From Candidatus Shapirobacteria bacterium (GTDB lineage Bacteria > Patescibacteriota > Microgenomatia > UBA12405), in NCBI GenBank assembly GCA_041658955.1, contig JBAZZE010000003.1, positions 3,842 to 67,841 on the forward strand: 64,000 nucleotides of DNA, written 5' to 3'. Shown here piece by piece: positions 9,301-56,138 of this stretch; position 1 is the first letter of the stretch; the number at the start of each line of letters is the position of its first letter. The notes beneath the pieces are model-generated. The model saw only the letters and a list, made by a program, of their open reading frames with translations. It was not told where the DNA came from and made no database searches. Position numbers and translations under genes: made by a program.

Positions 9301-11627
9301 TAAAAAGTGGCTTTGTTTGTGGCTGAGTTATCAAAAACTACTGCAACGTGATACCAAGTATTGGCAAAGACACTGTTACTTGAAGAACAAACAGAGGCGG
9401 CTTGATTATTTGTTTCGTAACATACTCGACCACCGGCTTGAAGGTAAAAATTGTAAGCGTTGGTTGTGTCACCTGAACCATCTTTGCTTATGATATATTC
9501 CTCACCTGCAGATAGATCATTACTATTGACCCAGGCACTGATAGTGAAATTTGTAGTTACATCAAGGCTATTTGAGTCTACAGCAGTAGCGTAATCCGTT
9601 GTCCCATTGAGTGAAAGTCCAACTCCAAATTTGGAAAGAGTTGACCATTCTGGAGCAGATGAACCGGCGGCAAAGGTAACTGTGTTGGTACCACCCGATG
9701 AGTCGATGACGGTTGTCCCGGTATTTTCATCCATTTTCCACCAACCAACGAGACCATTGGAAAGGGTGTCATTGAGGTCACGACCGACTTTGACACCACT
9801 ATCGGCGTTATAACTGTTTTTTATTTGGGAGTCTGTTCGAGCATAATCGTAAAGTTTAACCTCGTCAATAACTCCCTTAAATGCGGCAGTATTTCCGTCT
9901 GAACCTATTTGGAGATCTGAATTACTAGCGTATAAAGTATCACCACCTGTAGGTAAATTTGAACCACCTGTTAGATTTGAACCATTGACATAAATCTTAA
10001 GACTGGCCCCGTTCCTAACACCAACAACGTGATACCAGGTGTTTTTGGCCATAGTAAAAGTTGTGGGTCGAGTGAAAGCGTTGTAACCGGACCCTGAAGC
10101 GTTCACCCAGGCAAATGTAAACCTATTTTCGCTGGAGGTATAATCAGCTTGGAGTTCATACGATTCCCAAGGACTACCACCGTGTTTTTTCATAATAATA
10201 ACTTCGCGGCCACCGGGGACTTCAGACGGCAAAGCGTGAAGATAGACCCAAGCCTCGACTGACATGTTGGCCGAGGGCCGGAGAATACTATTGTCACCAG
10301 ATTTAGTAAAACGATTTCCAAGACCATCAAATTGAAGAGCATTGTCATATTTCCCTATAGTCCAAGATGGCAAGGTGGTGGAAGTACCGCCGGTTTCAAT
10401 AACGCCATCAAATCGATTAGGGCTAGAGTCATAGGCAGAAGTACCAATATTTTCATTGAATTTCCAATAAGCGACTGGCTCAGTATTATTGTTTTCAGTG
10501 GGTATAGTGGCACTAAAAAATGTAGATGGTGAATTTTGGTTGTTGTGTTCGGTACTGACCCAAGTGGTTGACCGGACGGATTTTGAAACACGAACTTCAT
10601 CGATAAGACCATTGGCGTCTGTTGGCCAAGAAGTAGTGCCACCAAGCATAAAACTGGCTGACGATGAACCGGGATCGACGGTTCGACTAACTTCGGTGCC
10701 ACCAACTGCACCATTGATATACATATAGTCAGTGTCAGATGTAGAGTTGTGAACACCGGTGATGTTGTACCAGGTTCCAGTAGTGACAGAGCCAGCACCA
10801 CCGAAGGTGCCGTATTCACTACCGTTAATATAGCTGATGCCCATACTGGTAGTGTTGTCATAAAAATACCAACCGGTACCATTTTCTTTACCTAACCAAT
10901 CATGCCAGCCTAAGGAGGTAGCTTTGACCCAAAAACTGGCACTAAGATCAGTAACGGTTTGACCGTTTTTGCTGGGAAAGTTGCTACTTAAATTAGTATC
11001 AGTGCGAAAAAGATCTCCTGCTTGAGTAAAACTGGCAGCTGTACCAATTTTACCGGTAGCATTGCTCACTGTTCCGGAAATTGCCAAATGGTTGTTATTG
11101 CTAGTGGAATCATAGCGGGTAGTGCCAACCTCATTTAGATGCCAAACACCAACATAATTGCTGTCCCAAACATTATTTTTACCGAATTCGAAAGCAGCGT
11201 CATAGTCAGTGGCACCGGAATTTCCATAATAAATATAAATAGAGGTGTCGACGGTCGAGGAGAGGGTCCCAGAGTATTTGAAATATAATTCACCAGCATC
11301 AGTGGCAGAATCATAATAAACTACTTCACGAGGTAGCTCGGTAGTGCCATCACTTTTAGTGACTCGAATATCACGAGCATCAGTTTGATTGACATGGGCA
11401 TGAAAATCTGCCGGAAGACTGGCGAGACTTACTAGGATAGGAAAATCAGTTTGGTCGGCAGAAACCTTGGTGTGGTCTATGGTTAGCATTAACCGATTGG
11501 TCCAACCAGTGTGATACCAAGCGGCTTCAACTGTGGTTGGTTTAGTTTGGATGCGAATTAAAACGACAATTCCAATCAGCAAAATTACGACAATGGTAAA
11601 CAGGGTTTTATACGAGAACTTTTCCAC
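6372..11627 (-). CDS. Giant LamG-repeat surface protein, paralog 3 (GTG start); N-terminal TM anchor
   Basis: 1751-aa ORF starting at GTG (plus-strand CAC at 11625-11627). N-terminus MEKFSYKTLFTIVVILLIGIVVLIRIQTKPTT. Repeated WKFNE/WWKMDE/HWKMEE ... DEV[KR][LV]YNYA[RL]T...I LamG-like units. The C-terminal ...LTETQIKSIINNGSATFR is shared with paralog 2. Confidence 0.7.
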   Translation of the reverse strand: MEKFSYKTLFTIVVILLIGIVVLIRIQTKPTTVEAAWYHTGWTNRLMLTIDHTKVSADQTDFPILVSLASLPADFHAHVNQTDARDIRVTKSDGTTELPREVVYYDSATDAGELYFKYSGTLSSTVDTSIYIYYGNSGATDYDAAFEFGKNNVWDSNYVGVWHLNEVGTTRYDSTSNNNHLAISGTVSNATGKIGTAASFTQAGDLFRTDTNLSSNFPSKNGQTVTDLSASFWVKATSLGWHDWLGKENGTGWYFYDNTTSMGISYINGSEYGTFGGAGSVTTGTWYNITGVHNSTSDTDYMYINGAVGGTEVSRTVDPGSSSASFMLGGTTSWPTDANGLIDEVRVSKSVRSTTWVSTEHNNQNSPSTFFSATIPTENNNTEPVAYWKFNENIGTSAYDSSPNRFDGVIETGGTSTTLPSWTIGKYDNALQFDGLGNRFTKSGDNSILRPSANMSVEAWVYLHALPSEVPGGREVIIMKKHGGSPWESYELQADYTSSENRFTFAWVNASGSGYNAFTRPTTFTMAKNTWYHVVGVRNGASLKIYVNGSNLTGGSNLPTGGDTLYASNSDLQIGSDGNTAAFKGVIDEVKLYDYARTDSQIKNSYNADSGVKVGRDLNDTLSNGLVGWWKMDENTGTTVIDSSGGTNTVTFAAGSSAPEWSTLSKFGVGLSLNGTTDYATAVDSNSLDVTTNFTISAWVNSNDLSAGEEYIISKDGSGDTTNAYNFYLQAGGRVCYETNNQAASVCSSSNSVFANTWYHVAVVFDNSATNKATFYVNGVKTGYFNSNVTQAPTALTTSLLIGRRGNSGSEFSGLLDDIRLYNRSLSPSEMQILYNYAPGPIGHWKMEEASWNNNCSTNTAMDSSGYDHHLRSCPASTGPTGGSVGKIGKGGTFDGSNDYLESTSTDFNLTGNVTLSAWVRPLDTPPGDVYVIDRTNNNAGYSLGWQSSRTPRLRIGNGSTYLQLTSPNTLSLDTWSFLSATITSDGAASLYVNGHLDTGATGMVIITSSGQNLRIGSRAAVNTVNAQLDDVKIYNYVRTKSQIREDMGNGKPLTPIINLKFEENSGTLANDSSGNNFTGTFGAGTASPAWTVGRSDQALSFDGGDYVQISDNNYLDFTDDFTLSAWVSRSGGTNEYIISKTDASSDGGYALLIGNAGEVYCRTANTTGFNDTYTATGYVLADSTWHHLVAAKTGTSCRVYVDGVDRTNTIATHTTMTANAKNLRIGTQPAGGNYTIGKIDEVNVYNYALNSDEIKQLYNRNSVIQSGQTVQTIGATTTSLKYCIPGDTALCNAPIGEWNFDTNVGTPSTLPDTSGNGNNGVANGSMTSDDWVPGKNGSALNFDGSNDYINIYSANLASLFSGNQGTVTAWFRVGDGVWGDGVQHQVLTIGADVNNMITIRKASDGSLNTLYTAAATNETSLDCALTDTGYIFIAMSWDQTAGKVVHYCNGLLTDTDTALGAYTGALSSTRATIGAHTTGVTYPWKGDIDDLRIYNYVRTPAQVGLDYNQGGPLVWYKFDECQGSIIHNSMGTGYTGVISIGAAGTQTSLGTCNSGTAAAWTNGASGKINGSLNFDGNDDLAAVTESESKGSLDIGSSDSFSIAYWFNPTSLPGAGTYDTYAGKNIGGNGWYTQIYSDGSLEFCVVNTSVHCYSGNQNVVNVGTWNHYAVAYTSGDDSSIRLYHNGKLLTGSWGGTANLTVPNTNNNLAFGSNGDGTEEATGKIDDFRYYGYLLTETQIKSIINNGSATFR

Positions 11628-12888: not shown

Positions 12889-13869
12889 TTAGCGATCTTT
12901 GTACTTTTTCTTCAAGGCTTCTAGCTCTTTCTCTAGTTCTTCGACTTGACCATCATCTTCATGTTTTGGTGCGGGCTGTTGACGTCTAACTAGGGTGTAG
13001 ATGACATAAGCAAGAATGAGAGCGGTGATGACTAGAGCAATTAGTCTCCATGGTATTACCCAGAAGAATAGAGTAGCAGAGATAGCTTGACCGGTAGTGC
13101 CATAACCAGCATTGAGAGTGGCAGTGTAACGTCCAAACAGCCATTTACGATTGAGAGTGTTTTCAAATCCACGAGCGGTGTTGGGGAAAATATTGGTAAG
13201 GTTAAGGGGGAGATCGGCAGTCTTACCACCGAGCCAGTTTTTGATAGCGATGCTTCCGGCGGGGGTGACATGAATATCGGAAAGATTAGCAACAATAGTT
13301 TTAAAATTAATTGGTCCAAATTCGGAAAAGCCTGGTGCAGAAAATTCAGTGACACGAGCGTCTTCTTTAATATCACCTGGTACAGTGATGTAGATCAAAG
13401 TACCGACATTAGTTTCGATAAAAGAACCGGTTTCAGTAAGTACGGATTCGTTTTTGGGACTGTGGAGAATCATAGAATAATGTCCACCGGAAAGTGCATC
13501 GTCAGGAGCAATTATGGTCATCATGATGGATCTGGTTTCACCGGGTTTTAGGCGAAAACTAGTGGGTGAGAGATGGATCCAGGAAGAAGCAGCCCAACGA
13601 TTACTGCTTTCGTCAAGATTTTCAAGTTGGAGTGGAGTACCTTCACTATCAGTAACGATAAAGTCTTTGCTGGTAGTGGTGATAACTCTTTCAGTCTTGG
13701 ATTCGTTACGGATTTTTAGTTCTTTAGTGACGGTTTCGCCGGGTTTGAGGGTAACTTCGAGTCGGGGAGGAATAGCACTAAGACCAGTAGCTGATTGAGC
13801 CTGAACATTAGTAGTGGTAAGTAATGAACTTCCGAAAAGAATTAGTAGGGGGAGGATTATTTTTTTCAT
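12889..13869 (-). CDS. DUF916/DUF3324-like (WxL-interacting-type) cell-surface protein with C-terminal TM anchor and charged tail
   Basis: 326 aa. Signal peptide. N-terminal segment LSAIPPRLEVTLKPGETVTKELKIRNESKTERVI, then WIHLSPTSFRLKPGETRSIMMTIIAPDDALSGGHYSMI; this resembles the DUF916/DUF3324 pattern of Firmicute Csc loci. C-terminal TM (WRLIALVITALILAYVIYTLV) followed by KHEDDGQVEELEKELEALKKKYKDR. The call is pattern-level only. Confidence 0.4.
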   Translation of the reverse strand: MKKIILPLLILFGSSLLTTTNVQAQSATGLSAIPPRLEVTLKPGETVTKELKIRNESKTERVITTTSKDFIVTDSEGTPLQLENLDESSNRWAASSWIHLSPTSFRLKPGETRSIMMTIIAPDDALSGGHYSMILHSPKNESVLTETGSFIETNVGTLIYITVPGDIKEDARVTEFSAPGFSEFGPINFKTIVANLSDIHVTPAGSIAIKNWLGGKTADLPLNLTNIFPNTARGFENTLNRKWLFGRYTATLNAGYGTTGQAISATLFFWVIPWRLIALVITALILAYVIYTLVRRQQPAPKHEDDGQVEELEKELEALKKKYKDR

Positions 13870-13870
13870 T

Positions 13871-15355
13871 TTAGAAGGTGGCAGTCGCTGTATAAACTAA
13901 TTTACTTTCATAATTACCAGCTCCTTGGGTGGTTGAAGCGGTAGCTCGGTAACAAACATAGGCTCGTTCAGTAGCAGAAGGAGTGGTGACATTTTTCATA
14001 ATTTCTTTAGCATTAGCAGTACCGTTTCCAAATGGTCGATAACCAGATTGATAGTTGAAGATGGTTGTACCAACATTTATGTTGTGCATGGTGTAACCCC
14101 AACCGGAAGCGGTATAGGTACTCCATAGAGCAGGAGTGGTAGTGGTACAACCGGCACCATTACAATCGGTATCAGGAAGGGTGTCTCCATCGGCAATATT
14201 TTGCATGGGACCATCTTCATAGACAGTGACCACATAACCATTATTAGCATTGGTGACACAAGAAAGTCGTTGGGCCAGATCGTTGGGTCCGGCTAGGACA
14301 AGAGAACCATAGGCCACGGCGGTAGCGGTAGTATTACCGGCATTTGTACCGAAGGCTGAAAGTCCACAGGGGGTAGCACCGACACCGACTCCGGTGGCAT
14401 CGATGATAAAGGTAAGAGTTGGGTCAATAGTAGCAGTCACCCGAACTGACTCGACAACTGCGATTTTACCTTGGGCAGTATCAGCGTCGATTACCAATGA
14501 ACCACTATCTAGGTGTCTGACATAGAAAGTGTAGACATCAGCATTTCCTTCAAAAGCGACCGTGTGGTTGGGAGAAGGATTGATAAGCTGGCTACCGGTG
14601 GCTAGGTCAGCTCCAATGGCCATAGAATAGCCAACACCGACTTGGTTGGTACCACCAACTCCGAGGTAACAAGAGATAATGTGATAAGAACTACCATTAA
14701 CAACTGTGGTTGTGCCAACACTATAAGCAGTGGTAACCCCAATTCCCCAGTTGGGACAGGTAACGTCAGTGACTTTTAGCCTTGTGCCCAGACCATTGGC
14801 GGTTGAAGATGGAGTAGTAGCACCAAGATCAAAACCATTTTGATCGGGAATACCATCGTTGTAAAGTTCACCAGTAGAGCTGGTAGCTTTGAGTAAGAAT
14901 TGCCAAAAACCGCCAGCAGCGTTTGATTGGGGAGTAAGACTAATAGTGTGAATAGCGGAACGAGTAGCAATAATGGCAGCGTTGATGAAAGCATTGCTTT
15001 GACCAATAGCGGTGTTTAACTCGATAGTTTGAGTATTACCAATGTCTTGAACGACATATTTAGTGAGAGGTCCGCTGATACCAACTCCAACTCCAGTGGT
15101 ACCAATGGCAATAGTATCGCCGACAAAAAGGTTGTTGGTAGTATTGCTAGGTAGTCCAGTGCTACCAACTTTAATGATGGAATCTCCAGTAGTAATAGGA
15201 GCGCTAATTCGGCCAAAATAAGATAGCTGAGAATTACTTAAAGTATCCTTGACAGAAGATGGTGGAAGAGAGCGGACTTTTTGTGGTTTAAAAATAGCAA
15301 ATGTACCAAAAGCTACCAACAAAATGGGTACTAAAATAACTAGTCGTCGTTTCAT
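13871..15355 (-). CDS. Secreted Thr/Gly-rich surface protein with WxL-like C-terminal motif
   Basis: 494 aa with an N-terminal signal/TM and Thr/Gly-rich beta-strand-like sequence. The C-terminus YRPF..(TVP)..STTQGAGNYESKLVYTATATF is homologous to the C-terminus of the 20477..21211 protein (YRPF...STTQAAGSYQSAIIFTAVPNY). This resembles the Y...L.W.L...P WxL motif with W replaced by F/Y. The stop is 1 nt from the start of the DUF916-like gene. Confidence 0.4.
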   Translation of the reverse strand: MKRRLVILVPILLVAFGTFAIFKPQKVRSLPPSSVKDTLSNSQLSYFGRISAPITTGDSIIKVGSTGLPSNTTNNLFVGDTIAIGTTGVGVGISGPLTKYVVQDIGNTQTIELNTAIGQSNAFINAAIIATRSAIHTISLTPQSNAAGGFWQFLLKATSSTGELYNDGIPDQNGFDLGATTPSSTANGLGTRLKVTDVTCPNWGIGVTTAYSVGTTTVVNGSSYHIISCYLGVGGTNQVGVGYSMAIGADLATGSQLINPSPNHTVAFEGNADVYTFYVRHLDSGSLVIDADTAQGKIAVVESVRVTATIDPTLTFIIDATGVGVGATPCGLSAFGTNAGNTTATAVAYGSLVLAGPNDLAQRLSCVTNANNGYVVTVYEDGPMQNIADGDTLPDTDCNGAGCTTTTPALWSTYTASGWGYTMHNINVGTTIFNYQSGYRPFGNGTANAKEIMKNVTTPSATERAYVCYRATASTTQGAGNYESKLVYTATATF

Positions 15356-16354: not shown

Positions 16355-17356
16355 TTAGGAGTTGACTTCGGATACGGGCGCGGGAGAGATTGGTTGATCG
16401 ACAGGCTCAATCATCGTGGGACGAGTGAAGTTGCCGGGGATGAGGACAAAGCGCTGCAGGTTGATAGTCCCTGAAGCATAGGTGGTCTTGATAATGATTT
16501 CAGTATCCAGAGGAAGGTTGATTCCGGTGAATTCAGAAATATCATAGTCAGGATCAGCCCATTGAAACTCCCAGATCATTTGGTTTTGATCATCAAGATC
16601 AAAAATGCCATGAGTGGAAGTGCTTGGTCCAATATAACCCAAACCAGCCCAGCCAGTACCTTGATTGGTGCCGCGGATTTGAAAATCAATGATGCTCATA
16701 TCAGAATGACTGAGCTTTTTGCCAGTAAAAATCTCGACAGTAAAGCCGGATTCGTACCAGTTTTTGACTTGGTCAGTGGGATATTCAAACGAATAAACAC
16801 CAATGGAGGTGAGTTCTTCGTCGGAAGCCCAGCTTACTTCGCCATCAACTTTATGACAAAAACCACTGACTTCCAAATCGGGACGACTATCATCGCGCGC
16901 AGCCAAGTGACCATACTTGTTGAATACCCATACAGTGAGAGCTGATTGGGGAATGTCATCAAGTGTGGCATTGGCATTGACGGTGGTAATCGGATTGCCC
17001 CAGCGGTCATTGAGTGAGTCAACATCAATCCAGTTGATTGAGCTTTTATCGCCGAAAACGAACAGTTCCCAAACTTCGTGAATGTTTCCATTCTCGTAAG
17101 ATGAGGGGTGGCTGCTGTCTGCAGGGATTTGGGCTATCTCAACTTTGGCGTAGGCGAGGTCGCAGCCGCGGATTGATTGCCAATCATCAACAACAGGAGT
17201 GGGTATGCTGGTCGGTTCGACAGTGATGGGGGCAGGGGTGGCGGTTGGGTGGTAGGTGTTTTGGGCACCGGAGTAAAAGCCACTCAAGCCAACACTGGTC
17301 ATCAGTGCCAGAGCGATCAGGGTCATCAGAAGGCGACGAGCAAAATTTTGGGACAT
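16355..17356 (-). CDS. Secreted hypothetical protein (signal peptide)
   Basis: 333 aa with signal peptide (RRLLMTLIALALMTSVGLSGF) and a Pro/Thr linker. No recognised domain. Followed on the minus strand by a hairpin plus U-run (16221..16244). Confidence 0.45.
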   Translation of the reverse strand: MSQNFARRLLMTLIALALMTSVGLSGFYSGAQNTYHPTATPAPITVEPTSIPTPVVDDWQSIRGCDLAYAKVEIAQIPADSSHPSSYENGNIHEVWELFVFGDKSSINWIDVDSLNDRWGNPITTVNANATLDDIPQSALTVWVFNKYGHLAARDDSRPDLEVSGFCHKVDGEVSWASDEELTSIGVYSFEYPTDQVKNWYESGFTVEIFTGKKLSHSDMSIIDFQIRGTNQGTGWAGLGYIGPSTSTHGIFDLDDQNQMIWEFQWADPDYDISEFTGINLPLDTEIIIKTTYASGTINLQRFVLIPGNFTRPTMIEPVDQPISPAPVSEVNS

Positions 17357-17644
17357 GTTATCCTCCTCAGGATAGGGTTGGGGGTTGTGACAGTAAACCT
17401 AGCGGTTTGCTGGATTCAACCTCCAACCTTTTGTCTTTTCCTAAAACCTATTTGTTAATGTGCTCCTTCGACTCTTAGTTAGTCGCTCAGGATCTTCGAC
17501 CTAATTGAATGAGTAGCAAACGCAATGTTCGTATCTTCCAATTAAGTTAAGGTTATTATCTTATAATAGAGAGTTATATTCAGGACTTTTGAGAGACAAA
17601 AAACGGACAAAAGGGAGACATTTAGGTTTGTGTTATAGTGAGGT

Positions 17645-18583
17645 ATGGAGTTGCGAAAACAACAAGCTTATATCCAACTAAAAAAAGAATTAGACGAATG
17701 CCGGGGATTGGGAACTAATTTGTTGATAATTACCTTACCAGGTACTGGTATGGGGAGAATGATAAAAGAATATGGAGTTGATGTAGGTGAAAGTAAAGCA
17801 GTAGTGATAACCGATGAGACTTCCGAATTGGGATCCTATAACCTGATAAATTTTGATTGGGCTGATACAAATACACTTAACAAGGTCGAAAAAATTTTCA
17901 AAAAGGCCAAAACTGATCAGAAAATTGCAATCACTATAAATTATCCAACCTTGTTAAACGATGATAATTTACTAAAATCGTTCTTTATAAACCATACTTA
18001 TAGAAAATACTATTTTGGTTTAAGAAGCGAGGAAGATAGCAGTCGTTTGTGTCGAGAAATAAATAGTGAACTATCTAAAGAGGAAATATCCAATATCTAT
18101 AATCTTTCTGGTGGTTTGGCCCAGCTAATAAAATACCTAGTGGTAAATGGAACTGAAAAAAAAGATGGCGCCGAAATAATATTGGCTCCGGTGGTAAGGG
18201 CAGTGGTGGGTGTATCAGAAGAAGTTTTACAAAAATTGGGGATTTGGAATAAGGAGGGGTGGAGGGGTGAACTATTAAAGGCTTACAACAAAACAGTTAA
18301 AGGTATTGATATTCAAATTAATTTTGATTTGAGCTTTGAAGAGGATGGAAAATTGAATAAGCAGAAATTAACAAAATCAGAAAAACAATTATTGGAAAAA
18401 TTCATGGTAAATAATGGAAAGTTGACCAAAGAAGAAGTATCGGATATTAAGTGGGGAGAAGGAAAATATGATGAATTTTCTGATCAAGCCATAAATAAGC
18501 AATTGAGAAGGTTGTCGGAAAAACTGTCAATTTATACAATCCAAACAATTCCAAAAGTAGGATTTATTATTAAGAAAAAATGA
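17645..18583 (+). CDS. Transcriptional regulator with C-terminal OmpR/PhoB-type winged-helix DNA-binding domain and non-receiver N-terminal domain
   Basis: The C-terminus LTKSEKQLLEKFMVNNGKLTKEEVSDIKWGEGKYDEFSDQAINKQLRRLSEKL fits the Trans_reg_C pattern (LT..E..LL......G...s.eel...vWg.......r.vdvhI..LR.Kl). The N-terminal ~230 aa has no receiver-domain Asp pocket and contains a degenerate P-loop-like ITLPGTGMGRM. The stop overlaps the next gene start (ATGA). Confidence 0.5.
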   Translation: MELRKQQAYIQLKKELDECRGLGTNLLIITLPGTGMGRMIKEYGVDVGESKAVVITDETSELGSYNLINFDWADTNTLNKVEKIFKKAKTDQKIAITINYPTLLNDDNLLKSFFINHTYRKYYFGLRSEEDSSRLCREINSELSKEEISNIYNLSGGLAQLIKYLVVNGTEKKDGAEIILAPVVRAVVGVSEEVLQKLGIWNKEGWRGELLKAYNKTVKGIDIQINFDLSFEEDGKLNKQKLTKSEKQLLEKFMVNNGKLTKEEVSDIKWGEGKYDEFSDQAINKQLRRLSEKLSIYTIQTIPKVGFIIKKK

Positions 18584-19641
18584 GCGAAGTTCAGTACACA
18601 GAAAAAGGAATGCCGTTTTTAGTACCAGAAGTTAAACTGGAAGTGGGTGAGGCCTATTTTGTGGCAGTGGAAGGGATTGATGGTTATGAACCAAATTTTT
18701 GTATATTAGGACATCGTGATAAAGATGGTAGTCCGGTGTTTTTACCTTGTTTTGAGAAGGTGGTGGATGAGAATGGAAATCCAAATGAGCTGGCTCAATC
18801 AATGGGGATAAAAAGTTTTTCGGGAAAATGGTCGTTGCCAGAAGAATTGCGCTGGGAGATTTTTTCATCATTAGATGTGGTGCCACCGGTATTGGCGGTC
18901 GATAGAGTAATGAACGATCGGGGGTCTGATGATATTGGAAAATACCCACAATCTTTTGACAGAATGCCGACGCAAATGGTTGGGGTGGTAGCACCACCAC
19001 AAACCGGTAAGACAACAATTTTAACTTCAATGGCGATGGCCAGTGCGGGGGAAAGGCAAAAAGAAAGTAGTGTGAGGTTGGTGGATATGGATGATTTTTC
19101 ACCAGAGTCATTGACGGCTACAGTGGATTGGTTAATGGAACAAGGCTATGACAAGGGGACCAATTTAATAGAACTTCACGATGCGATTTTAGCGAGATTT
19201 ACTGAGTTACAAAAAACAGGAGCACCAAGACAAGTGAATCAAGAGAGAACATTAAAAAGTAGATTGAAATCGTTGAGGGAAAGGTATAGAAGTGAAGAAA
19301 TGACTCACTTAGAAAGAGATGGTGAATTACATAAGATGAGCTGGTTAGTAGATTTGCCGGGAACAAAAAGAGCTAGTGATCGACCAGCTGACGCATTTGA
19401 CTGGTTGAGATTAGCGATGCCATGTGTGGAAGTTTTTAAAGCAGGAGAAAATCTAAATACTTGGGAGCTACTGCTTAATTTTGCTTATATAAATAAACAA
19501 ATTGATCCAATAATGAGGGACTTTGAATATATGATTGCGGACATGGAAGTGTCTTTAGTAGGAATGACTAGAGCAGAGTTGGATCAGTTGGTTATGGGAA
19601 AAATGATAACCACTGAGCGAAAATTAGTTGACGCGGAATAA
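18580..19641 (+). CDS. P-loop NTPase of unknown family (Walker A and B present)
   Basis: Walker A VVAPPQTGKTTILTS (GxxxxGKT) and Walker B-like VRLVDMDDFS, with an N-terminal ~140-aa domain of unknown type. It is translationally coupled to the upstream regulator by a 4-nt overlap. Confidence 0.5.
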   Translation: MSEVQYTEKGMPFLVPEVKLEVGEAYFVAVEGIDGYEPNFCILGHRDKDGSPVFLPCFEKVVDENGNPNELAQSMGIKSFSGKWSLPEELRWEIFSSLDVVPPVLAVDRVMNDRGSDDIGKYPQSFDRMPTQMVGVVAPPQTGKTTILTSMAMASAGERQKESSVRLVDMDDFSPESLTATVDWLMEQGYDKGTNLIELHDAILARFTELQKTGAPRQVNQERTLKSRLKSLRERYRSEEMTHLERDGELHKMSWLVDLPGTKRASDRPADAFDWLRLAMPCVEVFKAGENLNTWELLLNFAYINKQIDPIMRDFEYMIADMEVSLVGMTRAELDQLVMGKMITTERKLVDAE

Positions 19642-19643
19642 GT

Positions 19644-20474
19644 CTACTTTTGGGTTTTTCGGATCAATGAGTAGATAAAACTACCGACAAAAATTCCAAA
19701 AATTATTAGGGAAAAAGGGAGGACATAAAAGTCGGCTGACTGATTGTTGATAGTGACGGTATAAACCCCAGGCCAAAATGGAGGATGGAGAACACAAGGA
19801 ACTGGATCGTTGTTGGAAAGACAAGCAATAGATCTATCTGAATGGGCCAGGACATTGTGAGGAAATAGTTCGGTTTCGGTGACAACTTGTCCACGGTGGG
19901 TGACAGTAATTTTACCGGTAGTTTTGGCAAAATAATCTGATTCATTACTGATAATTCCGTTAATGCTAACTCGGGGAAAGAAAATATCGGTGAAACGAGG
20001 TGTCAATTTGATACTAGTTGTTTTCAGGGTTGAGGGGGGATTTTCAGTATTAGAGGTGGAGATGAGCAAATGGGAGCCAAGACGACCGGTAGCTTGACCA
20101 CCAGTACTATCAGAATTAAGTTGACCACCCAAATCTTGATTGATAAAAAAAGTGAAATAATTATCACCTTGGGGAGTGGCGGAAGTTGATTTTATTTTAA
20201 GAACTAATTGGCGATTTTCAGAGGGGCGAAGGACAAATGATTGGTTAAGACGAAGATCAGAATTGGCCAGTGAAAATTCAAAATCAGGGGAAGTGGGGAC
20301 ACCCTCGTAACTGACGGCACCATCGGTACCTCGGGGTTGCCAGGGTAGAACTGAAGCAGAGACAACTAAAGGAGAACTACTATTGTTGATGACATTGTAG
20401 GCTTGAGTCAGAGTAATTCCAGGACGAGCGATTAGTTCGACTTGGGCTGGTTTGAGGGTGGTGTTGAATGGCAT
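19644..20474 (-). CDS. DUF916-like surface anchor protein paralog (C-terminal TM); no N-terminal signal peptide in ORF
   Basis: 276 aa. N-terminal TTLKPAQVELIARPGITLTQAYNVINNSSSPLVV resembles the LEVTLKPGETVTKELKIRNES segment of the 12889..13869 protein. C-terminal TM FYVLPFSLIIFGIFVGSFIYSLI + RKTQK. It starts 2 nt after the WxL-like gene stop. Confidence 0.4.
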   Translation of the reverse strand: MPFNTTLKPAQVELIARPGITLTQAYNVINNSSSPLVVSASVLPWQPRGTDGAVSYEGVPTSPDFEFSLANSDLRLNQSFVLRPSENRQLVLKIKSTSATPQGDNYFTFFINQDLGGQLNSDSTGGQATGRLGSHLLISTSNTENPPSTLKTTSIKLTPRFTDIFFPRVSINGIISNESDYFAKTTGKITVTHRGQVVTETELFPHNVLAHSDRSIACLSNNDPVPCVLHPPFWPGVYTVTINNQSADFYVLPFSLIIFGIFVGSFIYSLIRKTQK

Positions 20475-20476
20475 AT

Positions 20477-21211
20477 TTAGTAATTGGGTACAGCAGTAAA
20501 AATGATAGCGGATTGATAACTACCGGCAGCTTGAGTGGTGGAAATATTGGTTTTGTACGAAACCCGGGCGGAATGATTTTGAACAGGGACTGTTTCAGAC
20601 ATGGCCACTTTTCCGGTGGATGAGAAAGGTCGGTAAGCAGTAGAGCTACCAAAATAACCACTGGTACCAATATTGGTGGCAACTCCACTAGTATTAATAC
20701 CAATGACGTTATATCCAAAACCGTAAATTGACGCAGAAGTCCAAGTCTTGGCAGAGGTGGCAGTACAGTTTCCCAAGTCGCACCTAGTGTCAGGAATAGT
20801 GGTGCCAGAAGTTAGGGCAAGGGGGTGATTGTATTGGGTAAGGATTTGGTAGCCGTGACCAGAAGGTGTAGAGATGGTAATGATATTGGTAGCGGTAGAA
20901 GCGACGCCAGCAGTGAGAGTGCCTAGATTTATATCAAGGTTATCGATAACAAATGATAATTGATTAAAGGTTTCGTAAATATATTGAAAACCTGATTTGA
21001 CCTTATAACCGGCACTTTGGTAGGGTCCGGGAGCGTTTTGACCGACAGTGTCAGTCAATGAATAATTGGTTGAAACTTTTTTACCGGAGGTGATATTAAA
21101 ATTGCCCCAATCGATGATGTAGGAGGCAGAAGTAAAGTGCTGAGCTAGAGCTTTGGGGGAGACCAAAAACAAATAAACGATAACTAGAATGAGAAAACTA
21201 ATTTTCTTCAT
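20477..21211 (-). CDS. Secreted WxL-like surface protein paralog
   Basis: 244 aa. Signal peptide MKKISFLILVIVYLFLVSPKALA. Gly/Thr-rich beta-like body. C-terminus ...YRPFSSTGKVAMSETVPVQNHSARVSYKTNISTTQAAGSYQSAIIFTAVPNY is homologous to the 13871..15355 C-terminus. Confidence 0.45.
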   Translation of the reverse strand: MKKISFLILVIVYLFLVSPKALAQHFTSASYIIDWGNFNITSGKKVSTNYSLTDTVGQNAPGPYQSAGYKVKSGFQYIYETFNQLSFVIDNLDINLGTLTAGVASTATNIITISTPSGHGYQILTQYNHPLALTSGTTIPDTRCDLGNCTATSAKTWTSASIYGFGYNVIGINTSGVATNIGTSGYFGSSTAYRPFSSTGKVAMSETVPVQNHSARVSYKTNISTTQAAGSYQSAIIFTAVPNY

Positions 21212-21854: not shown

Positions 21855-21873
21855 TTTAGAGTATATTGGTAAT

Positions 21874-22518
21874 GTGTACGAAAACTCACAAAAGTTTGGA
21901 GTTATGGACGGAATGTTGGCAGTTGGTTTGGCGTTGATTACAGTTGGTGTAGGACTGGGAATTAAGTCAAAAGTTGATAAAACTAAGGTGGAATTAATTA
22001 AGGGTAAAGAGGCAGAAACTGTTACACAAGGTTATAATAAAGTAACCTTTGATATATCAGGTGAGGTGCTAAAACCAGGGGTTTATCGGTTAAGTGGAGA
22101 TTCTAGGATTAGCGATGCGATGGTGGTTGCGGGAGGATTGTCAGCAAATGCGGATAGAGATTGGGTGGAGAAAAATATCAATCGAGCCAAAAGAATAAAT
22201 GATGGGGAGAAAATTTATATTCCTAAAAAATCTGCAAACTTTGATCTTCAAACTTCAAACCAAATATCAAACAACAAAACAAAAGAAATTATTAAAACAG
22301 AACAGGTATTGGGAAGCATGAGCGGTGGGGTGATAAATATAAATATTGCAGGTGTCGAGGAACTTGATAAATTAGAAGGAGTAGGGCCGTCAATCGCTGC
22401 TAAAATAATTGAATATCGCGTAAAAAATGGGGGTTTTCGAAATATTAATGAATTGAAATTAGTTTCAGGAATTGGGGATAAAATGTTCGAAAAATTTAAA
22501 GATAAAGTGGGAATATGA
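21874..22518 (+). CDS. comEA: Competence protein ComEA (TM + SLBB + helix-hairpin-helix DNA-binding)
   Basis: N-terminal TM. SLBB-like VTFDISGEVLKPGVYRLSGDSRISDAMVVAGGL...GEKIYIP. C-terminal HhH pair INIAGVEELDKLEGVGPSIAAKIIEYRVKNGGFRNINELKLVSGIGDKMFEKF. Confidence 0.8.
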   Translation: MYENSQKFGVMDGMLAVGLALITVGVGLGIKSKVDKTKVELIKGKEAETVTQGYNKVTFDISGEVLKPGVYRLSGDSRISDAMVVAGGLSANADRDWVEKNINRAKRINDGEKIYIPKKSANFDLQTSNQISNNKTKEIIKTEQVLGSMSGGVININIAGVEELDKLEGVGPSIAAKIIEYRVKNGGFRNINELKLVSGIGDKMFEKFKDKVGI

Positions 22519-23510
22519 AATGGAGGCGAGTGGTTTTCGTAATGTTTTTTACTTGGTTTTTGATATTTGGCAGTAAATCAAAAATGTTGGGGGTAATAAA
22601 TGATTGCCTTCCATATAAAGAAGCGGGACTATTATCTGGAATAATCTTGGGAGATAAGACAGATTTTCCAAAAGATTTTGAAACTCAATTAATTAATAGC
22701 GGACTAATTCATCTAGTGGTGGTGTCGGGTAGTAATGTGATGTTGTTGATAGGAGGTGTGATAGAGAATTTGGCGTCATGGGTGGGGCGGAAGTGGGCCA
22801 TAATTTTTGGATTGGTGTTGGGGTGGAAGTATGCAATAATGGTCGGTTGGGAGGTGCCGATAGTGCGGGCGACGTTACTGCTGTCGATCATGTATTTTGC
22901 GCAACTTGTGGGGAGAAAATATAATTTGGTTAGGGGACTTCTGCTGTCAGTTTTAATAATGATAGTTGGTGAACCAAGGGTAATAGCCAGTGTCAGTTTT
23001 TGGCTATCGATAATGGCGTTTTTGGGAGTAATTACTGCCAAAAAATTTATGCTAACAAATCCAATTATTTTTCCGGTGGCGAGGTCTGCTTTGGTGACTT
23101 GTGCCAGAGGTGGATTTCGCTTCACTTTAGATAAAGTTATTAGAGAAATTCTTCAATCATTTAGGGAAACTGTTTGGATAATGATTTGGATTACACCGAT
23201 CTTAGCGCAAATATTTGGAAAAATAAGCTTAATATCGCCACTAACCAATGTCTTGGTTTTGGGATTGGTAGGGGTAGTGAGCGTGGTGGGAGCGATGGGG
23301 ATTATATTGGGGATGTGGTGGTTAACTTTGGGAAAAATGGTATTGTGGCTAACAATTCCGACTTTAAGTTATTTACGAAAGGTGGCAGAGTGGGGTGGGG
23401 GAAGTAGTGGATTAGAGATTGAATTTAATTGGTGGATTTTAGCGGGATATTATTTGATTTTAGGTTATTGGTTAATTAAAAAAAAGAAACATAATATCGA
23501 TTTCTTGTAA
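22515..23510 (+). CDS. comEC: ComEC/Rec2 competence (DNA channel) domain - N-terminal half of a split ComEC
   Basis: Signature GLIHLVVVSGSNVMLL (compare GLSHLLAISGLHV of the ComEC Competence domain). Multiple TM helices. A 4-nt overlap with comEA. The ORF ends immediately before intergenic repeat elements. Confidence 0.7.
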   Translation: MKWRRVVFVMFFTWFLIFGSKSKMLGVINDCLPYKEAGLLSGIILGDKTDFPKDFETQLINSGLIHLVVVSGSNVMLLIGGVIENLASWVGRKWAIIFGLVLGWKYAIMVGWEVPIVRATLLLSIMYFAQLVGRKYNLVRGLLLSVLIMIVGEPRVIASVSFWLSIMAFLGVITAKKFMLTNPIIFPVARSALVTCARGGFRFTLDKVIREILQSFRETVWIMIWITPILAQIFGKISLISPLTNVLVLGLVGVVSVVGAMGIILGMWWLTLGKMVLWLTIPTLSYLRKVAEWGGGSSGLEIEFNWWILAGYYLILGYWLIKKKKHNIDFL

Positions 23511-23580
23511 CCATTTTTTATTGTCGAGAATGAATGTGCGACGCACGTTCAAACAGACAATAAAAAAGATTACTGCGAAC
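23502..23580. repeat. REP-like hairpin element, copy A
   Basis: TTCTTGTAACCATTTTTTATTGTCGAGAATGAATGTGCGACGCACGTTCAAACAGACAATAAAAAAGATTACTGCGAAC. Nested inverted repeats TTATTGTC/GACAATAA, TGAA/TTCA and GTGCG/CGCAC. Both ends are A/T runs. Confidence 0.7.
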
Positions 23581-23603
23581 TCGCTATTTGTAACAAATAT
23601 TTT

Positions 23604-23786
23604 CAAACTCAAACACATTTCCTCCGTGGACCGATAATCGGGCTAGCAAGGTTAACTGAAACCACCACATCATTTTTAAGTCGAACCGATAGTCTGCCGA
23701 CTTGAATGATCCCATGCGCACGTCCGGCAGCTATCTGCATTCTCGTCGGCTACCAACCGAAAACAAGCCGACTGCGAAAACTTCTT
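23604..23786 (+). ncRNA. Conserved structured intergenic element B, copy 1 (candidate ncRNA or cis-regulatory RNA)
   Basis: Shares two blocks with 47205..47336: AAACTCAAA(C/G)ACATTTCCTCCGTGGACCGATAATCGG, and CATCTGCATTCTC-[hairpin]-TGCGAAAAC(T/C)TC. The hairpin is GTCGGCT...AGCCGAC here and GAAGACC...GGTCTTC in copy 2, which are compensatory substitutions. Confidence 0.45.
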
Positions 23787-23820
23787 TTAAAAACGATATG
23801 GTGTTTTCAAATAAATACAA

Positions 23821-24606
23821 ATGAAATATAAGTGGTGGCTGATAACTAGCTTAGTAGTTTTATTGTTAATGGTGTGGCAATTCAACCGTGATACTGGGGT
23901 GAAGGTGGTGTTTTGTGATGTAGGACAAGGCGATGGGGCGTTGATAATAAGCGGTAGTTTTCAGATGTTGATTGATGTTGGTGGTGGTAATCAGAAAATG
24001 CTCCAGTGTTTATCGAGGCACTTGCCGTTTTGGGATAAAACTATAGAAACAGTGGTAATTAGCCACTGGGATGCGGATCATAGTGGCGGACTACCAGGTA
24101 TTTATCGTTATTATAAGATTGAAAAACTATATAGTAATCAACTGTCGTCGGGGGACGGTGAACAAAAATTTTACCCAACTAAAGTATCAGAAAATGATGT
24201 CATTAGATTTGATGGGATAGATTTTGAAATACTTAATAAAGTAGTTGAAGGTGGCGACCCAAATGAAAATTCACTAATCGGAGTACTTAGTTATAAGGAT
24301 AAAAAAATATTAATGATGGGAGACGCTACTAGCGAAGCTGAACAAAGATTGGTGTGGCAAGGAATCCTTCGACAAGCTCAGGATGGAAAAGGAATAGATA
24401 TTTTAAAAATAAGTCATCACGGATCGGATAGGGCGACTTCGCCAGAATTACTTGATGAGGTCAACCCAGAAATGGCGATAATTTCAGTGGGTAAAGATAA
24501 TAAATTTGGTCACCCAGCAAAAACGGTAATAAAAAGACTGGAAGAGAGGGGTATAAAAATCAATAGAACCGATAATATGGGAGATGTAACGGTTACATAT
24601 GAATGA
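23821..24606 (+). CDS. ComEC C-terminal metallo-beta-lactamase-fold domain encoded as separate ORF
   Basis: N-terminal TM. Motifs VVFCDVGQGDGALII, ISHWDADHSGG (HxHxDH-type), LMMGDATSEAEQ, ISHHGSDRATS and NKFGHPAKTVIKRL, typical of the ComEC Lactamase_B domain. Confidence 0.65.
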   Translation: MKYKWWLITSLVVLLLMVWQFNRDTGVKVVFCDVGQGDGALIISGSFQMLIDVGGGNQKMLQCLSRHLPFWDKTIETVVISHWDADHSGGLPGIYRYYKIEKLYSNQLSSGDGEQKFYPTKVSENDVIRFDGIDFEILNKVVEGGDPNENSLIGVLSYKDKKILMMGDATSEAEQRLVWQGILRQAQDGKGIDILKISHHGSDRATSPELLDEVNPEMAIISVGKDNKFGHPAKTVIKRLEERGIKINRTDNMGDVTVTYE

Positions 24607-24674: not shown

Positions 24675-27600
24675 GTGCTGCTTCTTAAAAGACCAGTTTT
24701 AATGGGGGTTGTATTAGGGGTCTTTTTAGGGAGCCTTGTAGGTTGGGGGTGGTGGAGAGTATCGACTAAGGTTGAAGCAACAGATCGGACAATCACCAGT
24801 CGAGCTGATTTTGATCAAGGTTTGTTTGATAATACTGAAAGTAAAAGTAAGGAAGGAGAACTGAGACTAAAAGCCGGTGGTACTTGGGGAGCAAGGGTAT
24901 GGCAGATGCCAAAGGTAGGGATGACCAACCAAACAGGAATTGTCTCCGATGGAACCCACTTGTATATGTTGGCTGGTCAGGATAGGTATTTTGCTAAATA
25001 CATTCCAAATGAAGATCGATGGCAACAATTGGCCAATGCGCCACATGCTGCCTCGGTGGGGACTGATTTGGTGGTTGAGGGTGATTATATTTATGCAATT
25101 TTTGGGTCTTACACTAAGAACTTCAGTCGATACACGATCTCGACTGATACTTGGGTGAATATGGATGATGCCCCAGATTTGCTATACGATGGAGCTAGTT
25201 TGGGAACGGATGGAACCTATATTTATCTACTACGAGGGTCGTATACATCAGATTATTGGCGGTATAATCCATCAAATAATACATGGCTTAGTCTAGCGGC
25301 TCCACCAGCGACGATTGGAAGGGGGGCTAGCCTTTCATATAAGAATGGTTATTTTTATACGCCTAGAGGTGATTCAAACTTATTTTACAAATATGAAGTT
25401 GCCACAAATTTGTGGACTACTTTGCCAAATATACCGGCACCAAGTATCTCATATGCAGCTCACAACTCGGATATATTTGGAAATGCTTTGTATTACAACT
25501 TGGACTATGGGACGACAGCTTTTTACAAATTTGATTTGGGAACTACGTCTTGGTCAACACTACCGGGCTTGCCATGGCCATCTTATTACGTGGGTTTGGT
25601 GGGGGTGGGTGACACGGCTACTGGTCATGTATATGTTTTTCGAGGAAATGGTTCAGTCGATTTTTGGAAATATAATCCACGGACAAATAGTTTTGAGGGT
25701 TCGGTGGACACACCGAATGCTCCTAGTACAGGAGCAGACTTGCTTTATGATGGAAATTATCTGTATTTAAACCGAGGGGCAAATTCGACGAATATGTATC
25801 GGTACCAAATTGGAGGAACCTGGAAAACAATGGCAGATGCGCCGGCTGCTATGGGTGATGACACTAAAGGAATACAGGCTGGAGGATCGTTTTATTATAT
25901 TCGAGGGTCGGGGACGACTGCATTTTTTAAATTTGATCCGGCGATTGGGGCTAACGGGACTTGGACATCGATGTTGGGTACACCGGCCACAGCCAACTAC
26001 GGGGCGTCAGTAGTTTATCCAGGTAGTGGTAATTATATGTACGCAACCAGAGGTGCTTTGACACGAACTTTTTGGAGATACACAATTGGGGCAGGGGAAA
26101 CGTGGAGTGACGCGGCGGCGGCTGACTTACCAGATAATGCTGAAGCTGGGTATGGAGCTAGACTGGCGAGTGATGGAACAGATATCTATTACATGCCAGG
26201 AAGTGGAATGAGCAAACTTTATAAATACACTATCGGAACAACAACTTGGTCAGAAATTTCTGACATTCCCTTTTCGCCTTACTATGGGTCAGATATAAGC
26301 TACTATAACGGCAAATTGTACTTTTTGGCGGGTTACTATAAACCAGACTTTTGGGAATATACCATCGCCACCTCATCATGGAGAAGATTGGCGCCAACTC
26401 AAGATTATGGAGCCACAGAGATTGGTCCTTGGGCTGGTGCATCAATTGAATCATTGGGTAATGGTACTTTTTATGTAATTTTAGGAAATGGGGTGACAAG
26501 ACTTTTGACCTATACCGTAGATGCAAACAATTACCCAGTAAGTGGTGGGTGGACTAGTAAAGCCTTAGATTTATCATATGTAGCTTCGTGGAGTGGTCTG
26601 TCAATACAATCTTCACTGCCAGGAGACTCGTCAATTAGCTGGACAAGTCGAAGTAGTAGCGATCAAATAACTTGGAGTGACTGGATTGCTGGAGTGGGGA
26701 GTAGCATTGGGAGTCCGGTGGGAAGGTATCTTCAAGTTGGAGTAACCTTGGTATCGACGAGTGATCGGACAAATACGCCAAAGTTACTAGATATTCAAGT
26801 AAGTTATATTGGTGATACTGGAGTACCGACTAATCCATCAACGGTGGTGGGGGTGTCACAACAAGTATCGGGAGTGGGTCTGACATCGGCAGAAAGTTAT
26901 GGTTACCAAGCACCATATTTTAGTTGGAGCGGTGCGACTGACACTCAGACTTCAATTGCCGGATACTATGTTTATTTTGGAACTGGATCAAGTGCTTCAC
27001 CGGTGACCGAGGGAAATTATCAAACTGCGAGCAACTATCTAGTGACTACACCAATGGATCAGACGACTTACTATTTGAGATTGGTGACAGTTGATTCTGC
27101 TGGTAATAATTCAGCGGCAACTACAGCTTTTGTTTACACCTACAATGGAATTGCACCACCGATTACGATAACAAAGACAACTACAGCAGACTTTGGAGTG
27201 GGAACTACCAGCGCCGTGGATGTAAGTGGTGACAAGATAAAACTACAAGGTAAAGCAGGTTTTTGGGAGCAAGAGAGAATAAGCAGCCTGCCTGCAGGGA
27301 TATATTTAGGTGGTGACATGGCTTACAAAAGTAGCACTAATAAAATCTATTTATTTAGAGGCTACAATTCGAATACTTTTTATATTTATGACTTGACTAC
27401 CAATACAGTATCGGTGGGTCCGACAGCGCCAGGGGCAGTGTATTATGGTGGAGGTATGGTGGAAGGACCGGGTAATTACTTATATGCTATGAAAGGCTTA
27501 GTAACCAATTCTTTCTGGAGATTTGATGTGGGGACAACTACCTGGTCAGATGTAGCAGCGGCTGATTTACCACAGACTATATCGTATGGAGGATCGCTGG

Positions 27601-55832: not shown

Positions 55833-56138
55833 CTATCTTGAGGGACTAAAATCGACATCAAGAACTGGGTCACCGGCACGATTTTTGAAGGTAAGAGAGA
55901 TTTTTTCATCAACATGAAGTGAGTGGCCACCAAAGTCACAAACCAATTTTCCATCAGCATCAAAGACTTGGACATCGGCTGGGATATTTATGAGAGAGGC
56001 TCGGCCAGTATCAGAGAGCTTAAAACCGGTGAGTGAGGCGTCTTGCCCTGGTTCATTCAGCTGGGGGAGCAGTCCATTTCGGACAGTCCCTAATGTGGTT
56101 GCTTGTTCGCCGCTACGTAGAGATAATGTTGATGCCAT
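55833..56138 (-). CDS. Hypothetical small protein (doubtful)
   Basis: 101-aa ORF antisense to no other gene. No motif recognised. Confidence 0.2.
   Translation of the reverse strand: MASTLSLRSGEQATTLGTVRNGLLPQLNEPGQDASLTGFKLSDTGRASLINIPADVQVFDADGKLVCDFGGHSLHVDEKISLTFKNRAGDPVLDVDFSPSR

Follow-up and report, generated by a model that had tools for sequence, protein, structure and literature searches.

A conserved gene pair of Microgenomates with a predicted pseudo-AAA+ winged-helix regulator, an orphan P-loop NTPase and phased promoter repeats

We analysed a pair of genes, here called g1 and g2, in a 64,000-nt stretch (the window) of contig JBAZZE010000003.1 of Candidatus Shapirobacteria bacterium (assembly GCA_041658955.1), a lineage that a taxonomy look-up places in the Patescibacteria group, Microgenomates group. 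g1 encodes a predicted DNA-binding protein in which an OmpR/PhoB-type winged helix follows an AAA+-like domain that appears catalytically dead, and g2 encodes an orphan P-loop nucleoside triphosphatase (NTPase). The reading we favour, and to which we give slightly better than even chances, is that the two genes form a lineage-specific, autoregulated transcription-control module of Microgenomates (candidate phyla radiation, CPR). The features concerned are collected in Table 1. Databases name g1 as a generic helix-turn-helix (HTH) or winged helix-turn-helix (wHTH) protein, an exact copy being listed by NCBI as 'helix-turn-helix domain-containing protein [Candidatus Shapirobacteria bacterium]', and leave g2 unnamed; no published description of the family was found in the literature.

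Both open reading frames (ORFs) reported by the initial annotation, which was made from the sequence alone, are present as described, and they share 4 nt (ATGA). No Shine–Dalgarno sequence precedes the g2 start in aagaaaaaATGA, and this absence, together with the overlap, indicates that translation of g2 is probably coupled to translation of g1. We collected loci carrying relatives of the pair by exact-protein look-up, by a scan of GTDB species genomes and by a metagenome scan. Profile searches placed a co-oriented g2 homologue directly 3′ of g1 homologues in 25 of the 26 loci with room for it, which answers the question of gene-pair co-occurrence raised by the initial annotation; g2 also follows g1 in all eight additional g1-bearing metagenome loci. 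This pairing is well above chance expectation. Of 28 non-redundant pairs, 15 overlap by 4 nt at the junction, and in most of the others the two genes lie within a few nucleotides of each other. g2 is the faster-evolving gene (mean identity 20%, versus 36% for g1), and the distance matrices of the two genes are correlated (r=0.79, a value reached by none of 2000 Mantel permutations).

The loci come from Shapirobacteria, Woesebacteria and other Microgenomates, with one or two copies per genome (two in several genomes), and, as far as our searches reach, the pair is confined to Microgenomates. Searches with tblastn of PLSDB (72,556 plasmids) and INPHARED gave no relatives of the pair, IMG/VR gave no relatives of g1, and no transposase or integrase was linked to the pair in 25 loci. 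Universal linkage is limited to g1 and g2 themselves, no other gene being constant across loci: the right-hand three-gene cluster with ComEA/ComEC adjoins the pair in about six loci, and the neighbours elsewhere include genes for GroEL, PPDK, sigma-70, transketolase and NUDIX proteins.

The assignment of the g1 C terminus to the OmpR/PhoB type, already made in the initial annotation, was borne out by three kinds of comparison. Pfam PF00486 (Trans_reg_C) matches aa 241–308 of g1 with E=2.7e-4 (21.4 bits, short of the gathering score of 26.2). We gathered 74 full-length homologues, and 48 of 73 family members match at E<=0.1 (best E=7.8e-10). The family profile also matches the DNA-binding domain of SaeR in the PDB (E=2e-4), as well as those of CssR and WalR. 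Finally, in an AlphaFold2 (AF2) model built from 73 sequences (pLDDT 94.3), residues 223–311 adopt the canonical OmpR/PhoB effector topology, from the N-terminal beta-sheet to the C-terminal beta-hairpin wing, at pLDDT 85–96; the elements are strands 223–225, 230–233 and 236–241, helix 244–255, strand 259–261, helices 262–270 and 280–293, and strands 297–302 and 306–311. The predicted recognition helix, FSDQAINKxMRRL, is the best-conserved stretch of the g1 family. None of the 73 members matched Response_reg (the CheY-like receiver), and the N-terminal fold is AAA+-like, so the earlier statement that g1 lacks a receiver domain also holds.

Foldseek searches of the PDB with the g1 model returned FtsH, RuvB, Rix7, TnsC, Cdc48, Cdc6/Orc1, DnaA and MuB (E 8e-6 to 6e-4, probability about 1.0), with the STAND proteins CED-4 and Avs5 likewise among the matches. 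The alignments with RuvB and Orc1/Cdc6 run to about 330–395 columns and cover the entire g1 chain, indicating a three-domain order common to all of them. The degenerate P-loop 'GTGMGRM' noted in the initial annotation thus lies where a Walker A motif belongs in an AAA+-like fold and is its remnant. Across the 73 sequences its G33 and G35 are conserved; the Walker A lysine column is occupied by Tyr (23), Arg (22) or His (22), and the Ser/Thr column is hydrophobic (Leu, Phe, Tyr or Met). The residue that follows the Walker B strand (aa 93–98) is Asn or Ser, not Asp or Glu. Loss of both the Walker A lysine and the Walker B acid throughout the family marks the N-terminal domain, on its sequence and modelled fold, as a catalytically dead AAA+-like pseudo-ATPase, which would not hydrolyse ATP by the canonical route.

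The g2 protein is modelled (pLDDT 82.4, pTM 0.84) as a beta-rich N-terminal domain (~aa 1–125) followed by a minimal P-loop core (aa 130–285), in which a helical insert of roughly 65 residues separates strand 2 from a hairpin and strand 3; two long helices make up the C terminus. An index of 5.8 billion proteins yielded 4 close homologues, and HMMER, run exhaustively against 1.84 billion representatives, yielded 20 relatives, all of 190–386 aa; a word-indexed profile search with an 8-sequence g2 alignment added none. The Walker A motif seen in the initial annotation is real (PPQTGKT, with G143 and K144 conserved; family form (A/G)PPxxGK[ST]), and is followed after ~25 aa by hhhhDxD and after a further ~87 aa by hhhhDxPG. 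The Walker B role, however, moves from 'LVDMDD', where it had been placed, to the DLPG motif (D258, G261), the better candidate; LVDMDD follows the second strand. WLVDLPG is the probable Walker B/DxxG (switch II) element, and we read VRLVDMDD, with D169 and D171 past the second strand, as a switch-I-like DxD resembling that of SIMIBI NTPases. Several residues of the N-terminal domain are also invariant. By these motifs g2 looks like a catalytically intact P-loop NTPase.

When we tried to classify g2, as the initial annotation had suggested, it fitted no known family. There was no significant match in Pfam, NCBIfam, PADLOC or PHROGs; a Pfam scan of 10 divergent members gave noise only; and Foldseek gave no PDB or BFVD match at E<=0.001. 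The nearest structures, none significant, were nucleotide kinases, FtsY/SRP54, HypB and RadA. Comparison with E. coli reference proteins by hhalign gave weak alignments anchored on the P-loop (probability 43% for HypB, 13% for MinD and 1.6% for adenylate kinase, Adk), which place g2 138–171 over MinD 10–40 at low probability and include a weak alignment with FtsY. Other weak, non-significant matches were to MeaB and, in one member, to the GPN-type ATP_bind_1 (7.5e-4), and the weak Pfam matches were Dynamin_N in 5 of 19 members, MMR_HSR1, nSTAND and DO-GTPase. Taken together, the motifs and these weak alignments tilt the classification, tentatively, toward SIMIBI. Two more specific assignments were tried and rejected. 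g2 is not a deviant-Walker A protein of the ParA/MinD type, as the signature lysine is replaced by Pro and there is no Pfam match to CbiA, ParA or AAA_31. Nor is it a TRAFAC GTPase: G1 and DLPG are present, but there is no conserved NKxD, and only one short strand follows the DLPG strand. A profile–profile comparison of g1 with g2 found no homology past the P-loop (5% probability).

The DNA 5′ of g1 contains a strikingly conserved module, even though the proteins of the aligned loci are just 30–50% identical. The module carries 2–4 direct repeats of cGGACAaa, so the operator-like repeats that the initial annotation proposed to look for in 17400–17644 are indeed there; in the window the units after the first GGAC read GAGACAA, CGGACAA and GAGACAT. 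We compared 24 distinct upstream regions: of 30 intervals between successive GACA cores, 23 measure 11 bp and 4 measure 22 bp, and the proximal core begins 17–20 or 26–28 nt 5′ of a −10 hexamer. This hexamer is preceded by TG in 18 of the 24 loci and ends 5–6 nt before the start codon in 19. With so short a distance to the start codon, the g1 mRNA is probably leaderless or nearly so. Further upstream in the module are two AT-rich blocks, C and D, conserved in about 18 of these loci, which contain −10-like hexamers (including a perfect TATAAT and a TATATT) and a TATTAT/ATAATA dyad; neither block occurs a second time within the window. An upstream promoter, a site for a second factor and an unwinding element are suggested options for them.

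The repeats are specific to g1 promoters. In 736 kb of loci, both strands counted, GACA-N5-7-GACA has 64 matches, and 29 of them lie no more than 80 nt before a g1 start. The window contains the phased array once, and phased repeats elsewhere in it are at chance level and inside ORFs. The layout TGnTAnnnT-N5-7-ATG precedes at least six other genes of the window, and none of these leaderless-type promoters has GGACA repeats. We therefore rejected the possibility that GGACAAA is a generic −35 element, because the other leaderless-type promoters do without it and the heptamer is not enriched window-wide. Rfam had no match for the g1-proximal module and RNAalifold predicted 0 consensus pairs; the lack of a consensus RNA structure suggests that the module acts as DNA. 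Two of the paralogues that lack the repeats, L018 (SDLAIGK) and L020 (SDQAIGQ), have altered recognition helices, and three loci (L022, L023 and L027) have an inverted GGACAnnTTTGTCC-type variant of the repeat. Taken together, the position and phasing of the GGACAAA repeats suggest that they are most likely the binding sites of g1 itself.

We also noted how other genes of the window start. The genes at 42231, 44494, 47901, 49504 and 63265 (plus strand) and at 56138 (minus strand) have TGnTAnnnT 5–7 nt before the start and no Shine–Dalgarno sequence; an extended −10 element so close to the start at several genes suggests that leaderless mRNAs are common in this genome. Strong AGGAGG sites are found at other genes, for example the divergent gene at 16355..17356.

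The product of this divergent gene, to the left of g1, has a hydrophobic segment at its N terminus and a linker rich in Pro and Thr; the gene starts from the same 288-bp intergenic region as g1, a region conserved in many loci. Its leader contains a conserved block A (17440–17463, minus strand, GCACATTAACAAATAGGTTTTAGG) and an 11-bp hairpin (17417–17428 with 17376–17387) just 5′ of the ribosome-binding site. In an alignment of nine loci, 98.8% of the cells of the hairpin are paired, 7 of the 11 pairs show compensatory changes, and 0 of 500 shuffles equalled the observed value. Rfam has no match for this leader, which may be an unrecognised cis-regulatory RNA. A homologue of the left gene (54% identity) occupies the same position in one other locus (L021), and an unrelated family with a transmembrane (TM) segment and a Pro/Thr linker occupies it in about 13 others; the divergent protein always has a TM or signal segment plus a Pro/Thr linker, and belongs to at least two unrelated families. 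As the control region is common to both genes and conserved in many loci, co-regulation of the left gene with g1–g2 is possible. The initial annotation had the pair governing the adjacent surface-protein loci. For the flanking operons this finds no support, since linkage is universal only for g1–g2 and the phased repeats occur nowhere else in the window; at 21855–21873, where a search for shared repeats had been proposed, the gap is just 19 bp; what is left is the possible link to the divergent left gene.

These observations can be combined into the following model. The winged helix of g1 would read GGACAAA-like half-sites arranged head-to-tail 11 bp apart, at about −28, −39, −50 and −62 from the inferred transcription start, so that they would occupy the place of the −35 element in the manner of a pho box. 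The pseudo-AAA+ domain, which sits in the place of a receiver, would serve as a platform for oligomerisation and for docking of a partner. g2, made from the common mRNA by stop–start coupling, would bind g1, and its binding or hydrolysis of NTP would switch the assembly of g1 on the repeats on or off. Transcription of the operon, and perhaps also that of the left gene, would depend on this assembly. The earlier proposal of an ATPase-controlled DNA-binding protein is thus kept in part: the motifs and the pairing stand, and NTPase control is a reasonable model given a conserved pair that is probably translationally coupled.

Several points weigh against this reading. Binding of g1 to the repeats, contact between g1 and g2, and activation or repression as the outcome are all steps that we infer. 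To call g2 a 'switch NTPase' rather than a kinase is a guess, its fold class being at best tentative. Blocks C and D, whose conservation equals that of the GGACAAA repeats, are left unexplained. In L007 and L014 the recognition helix is conserved, yet no repeats are found within 140 nt. A solitary g1 paralogue (L018, 5935–6936 of contig CAZCYZ010000003.1) has no g2 downstream, its next gene being RuvA on the opposite strand; it lacks the GGACAAA module, and its contig also carries a full pair (L012). Divergence may have given this regulator another target. Lastly, a search of the window and the loci, together with a metagenome scan for the module pattern, revealed no target other than the g1 promoter. 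The 15 loci of that scan comprised 8 with the module and g1–g2, 3 with the module and fragments of insertion sequences (IS), and 4 unrelated chance matches. An upstream operon gene lies between the extra module copy and g1 in L011; the duplicate modules of L013 (4790–4950 and 5870–5980) enclose an unknown 312-aa gene, and those of L015 (3930–3990 and ~5900–6000) enclose an AAA_14/DUF4143-like ATPase gene and another gene; in L031, L039 and L041, IS transposase fragments follow the module. The extra modules of L011, L013, L015 and L039 look like rearrangements of, or insertions into, the operon and not like a regulon. The break always falls just past the GGACAAA repeats, which suggests that this site is an insertion hot spot.

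We weighed other explanations. g2 could be a P-loop kinase that phosphorylates g1, or a small-molecule ligand of the pseudo-ATPase pocket in g1, and so stands in for a histidine kinase; we regard this as unlikely. It would suit the best structural neighbours of g2 (adenylate kinase, dephospho-CoA kinase and (d)NMP kinases), its minimal core of 4–5 strands, in which a helical insert separates strands 2 and 3 in the manner of NMP-binding domains, and the conservation in g1 of the glycine-rich loop, H117, Y119 and K163, by which ligand binding may persist. However, every such structural match is non-significant, with probability <=0.5 and E>0.03, hhalign ranks E. coli Adk far below MinD and HypB, and g2 showed no lid or substrate motifs specific to kinases. 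A DNA-organising machine, akin to a partition complex (segrosome) or an initiator, in which g1 coats the repeats as a centromere or iterons, g2 is a motor or loader and autoregulation is a by-product, seems to us a rather poor prospect. The order of repeats, wHTH protein and NTPase is that of type III and type II par loci (PMC6009700, PMC7762940), in which, as in TubR-tubC-TubZ and ParR-parC-ParM, phased direct repeats over the promoter are combined with a small autoregulating DNA-binding protein and an adjacent NTPase. The domain architecture of g1 as in Orc1/Cdc6 and RuvB, its match to DnaA, the conserved AT-rich blocks next to the repeats and the SIMIBI- or ParA/MinD-like leaning of g2 point the same way. 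But g2 is a P-loop protein, neither tubulin- nor actin-like, and does not have the lysine of the deviant ParA/MinD Walker A; the repeats number just 2–4 and are precisely phased to a −10 element; and the pair is chromosomal, has varied housekeeping neighbours and has no plasmid or phage relatives in PLSDB or INPHARED. A type II or III partition locus was rejected on these grounds. GC skew is positive throughout 1–64000, so there is no origin or terminus in the window, and the cumulative skew rises monotonically through the locus without a turn, which rules out an origin of replication there. An Orc1/Cdc6- or DnaA-type initiator is likewise rejected: with its dead P-loop g1 could not hydrolyse ATP as initiators do, and it is found in one or two copies per genome in varied contexts.

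A bolder form of the regulatory reading, which we also hold to be improbable, is that an Orc1/DnaA-like dead AAA+ protein, polymerising head-to-tail on 11-bp-phased repeats beside an AT-rich element, within a module of roughly 110 bp and driven by a separate NTPase, makes up a new, Microgenomates-only nucleoprotein switch. In organisms with very few regulators, such a switch would in effect stand in for histidine-kinase/receiver logic, or else work as a minimal segregation- or initiation-like machine.

The initial annotation had offered a defence or abortive-infection module as an alternative. In such an anti-phage or toxin–antitoxin-like system the DNA-binding partner would restrain an NTPase effector, and we find this very unlikely. 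The pair would be in keeping with it as an operon of two uncharacterised genes, one for an NTPase, that is present in several copies per genome and has IS and gene insertions next to its module; so would the weak matches of g2 to PADLOC mad8 (E=0.0017, 15.9 bits, P-loop region) and the weak Pfam matches to nSTAND and DO-GTPase. However, no match exceeds any curated threshold, and g1 has no match at all in PADLOC-DB v2; nuclease, protease, TIR, SIR2 and pore effector domains are absent; the neighbours are housekeeping genes and not defence islands; and the plasmid and virus collections PLSDB, INPHARED and IMG/VR gave no relatives. Moreover, the pair is spread across Shapirobacteria, Woesebacteria and other Microgenomates with both genes diverging in step and with promoter and operator conserved. 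The alternative thus receives no positive support. That the pair is what remains of a mobile element, or an accessory to one, with g1 as a target selector of the TnsC/MuB/IstB/TniB-like AAA+ type and g2 as its helper, is extremely unlikely. The Foldseek matches of g1 to TnsC and MuB, a weak TniB Pfam match in one g1 family member and the insertions beside the module in L013, L015 and L039 would suit it, but there is no linked transposase or integrase in 25 loci, g1 lacks the ATPase residues essential to TnsC/MuB-type regulators, and chromosomal positions and promoter are conserved.

The control module that we favour can be compared with known systems. Members of the OmpR/PhoB family usually bind head-to-tail direct repeats with a period of 10–11 bp. 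g1 is in kind an OmpR-family regulator: it shares effector-domain topology and sequence profile with PhoB, SaeR and WalR, and its putative operator, like the pho box, is an 11-bp direct repeat that abuts or overlaps the −35 region. What is new is the pseudo-AAA+ domain and lid in place of the receiver and the orphan NTPase as partner. Unlike OmpR/PhoB regulators, g1 carries neither a receiver nor a phospho-acceptor Asp, and it is not linked to a histidine kinase. An OmpR-type wHTH and a P-loop (STAND) NTPase are also joined, in one protein, in the large ATPase regulators of the SARP/AfsR type, where the order is N-terminal wHTH, BTAD domain and active NB-ARC; in g1 the domain order is reversed, there is no BTAD match and the P-loop appears dead. 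With Orc1/Cdc6, RuvB and DnaA, g1 shares the fold, the three-domain order and phased repeats beside AT-rich DNA, but it lacks their Walker A Lys and Walker B acid, has an OmpR-type winged helix with an N-terminal beta-sheet and occurs in one or two copies per genome, at promoters; its locus is not at a GC-skew turn. The proposed logic, a small NTPase partner that adjusts the oligomerisation or activity of a DNA-binding regulator of AAA+ fold, resembles that of FleQ–FleN, in which the MinD-type ATPase FleN controls the AAA+ transcription factor FleQ (PMC8528422, PMC10723142), and of Soj–DnaA. FleQ differs from g1 in being an active sigma-54 activator whose HTH is of the Fis type, and FleN, unlike g2, has a deviant Walker A; their genes are not translationally coupled. 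The parallel of g2 with FleN and Soj is one of logic and not a claim of homology.

Table 1. Coordinates of the gene pair, its control region and its protein motifs in the window.
Feature	Position	Strand	Basis or detail
g1	17645..18583	+	ORF, 312 aa; predicted DNA-binding protein
g2	18580..19641	+	ORF, 353 aa; orphan P-loop NTPase
Divergent left gene	16355..17356	-	ORF, 333 aa; N-terminal hydrophobic segment, Pro/Thr-rich linker
Left-gene leader	17376..17463	-	block A and hairpin just 5′ of AGGAGG ribosome-binding site
Block C, TTCCAATTAAGTTAAGGTTATTATCTTATAATA (also given as TTCCAATTAAGTTAAGgTTATTATCTTATAATA)	17536-17568	+	upstream alignment
Block D, TTATATTCAGGACTTTT	17574-17590	+	upstream alignment
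Operator-like array	17582..17621	+	GGAC 17582; GACA 17595, 17606, 17617; 11-bp period
Extended -10, TGtTATAGT	17631..17639	+	ends 5 nt before g1 ATG
AAA+-like domain and helical lid of g1	about aa 1-218	+	AF2 model, Foldseek
Vestigial Walker A of g1, PGTGMGRM	17738..17761, aa 32-39	+	column frequencies, 73 sequences
OmpR/PhoB-type winged helix of g1	about aa 221-312	+	Pfam, PDB profile match, AF2 topology
Recognition helix of g1, SDQAINKQLRRLSE	18482..18523, aa 280-293	+	invariant or near-invariant columns; helix in AF2 model
Walker A of g2, APPQTGKT	18991..19014, aa 138-145	+	G143 invariant, K144 near-invariant, 19 sequences
VRLVDMDD of g2	19072..19095, aa 165-172	+	strand 2 (165-169, AF2) and DxD; D171 invariant
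WLVDLPG of g2	19339..19362, aa 254-261	+	D258, G261 invariant, P260 near-invariant; strand 254-258 (AF2)

The pair had been described as the only plus-strand unit in the first 21.8 kb, which holds for 1.8–21.8 kb when ORFs of >=140 aa are counted, and as flanked by surface-protein operons, which agrees with the neighbours: giant proteins with LamG repeats, and paralogous secreted or membrane proteins. The giants (1883–6394 and 6372–11627, minus strand) are paralogues of 1503 and 1751 aa, 32% identical and probably surface adhesins; each contains about seven Laminin_G_3/concanavalin-like lectin repeats as well as a DUF2341 domain. The loci on either side of the pair (12889–15355 and 19644–21211, minus strand) are weakly paralogous and have no Pfam matches: a 244-aa protein matches the C terminus of a 494-aa protein (26% identity, E=4e-16), and a 276-aa protein weakly matches a 326-aa one (E=5e-5). 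At 21874–24606 lie ComEA (SLBB and HHH_3) and then a split ComEC, made up of a Competence-domain gene (22515–23510) and a separate Lactamase_B gene (23821–24606); a 2401-aa ORF (24675–31880, plus strand) is directly 3′ of the ComEC genes. In L002 (5156–7973) a 23S_rRNA_IVP-family gene lies between ComEA and the Competence gene. Base composition changes near 18 kb, where GC content and skew both shift (GC 0.42–0.445 and skew mostly 0.04–0.12, with 0.27 at 12–14 kb, to the left; GC 0.36–0.43 and skew mostly 0.15–0.38 to the right), independently of gene orientation at 19.6–21.8 kb.

CPR/Patescibacteria have tiny genomes and are mostly uncultured, and little is known of their gene regulation. g2 defines a P-loop family without a relative in Pfam, NCBIfam or the PDB. 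If the model is right, the pair would represent a new mode of control for an OmpR-type DNA-binding domain, with the NTPase work done in a separate protein, and the phased GGACAAA repeats provide a testable cis-element from which the delineation of a regulon in these organisms could start.

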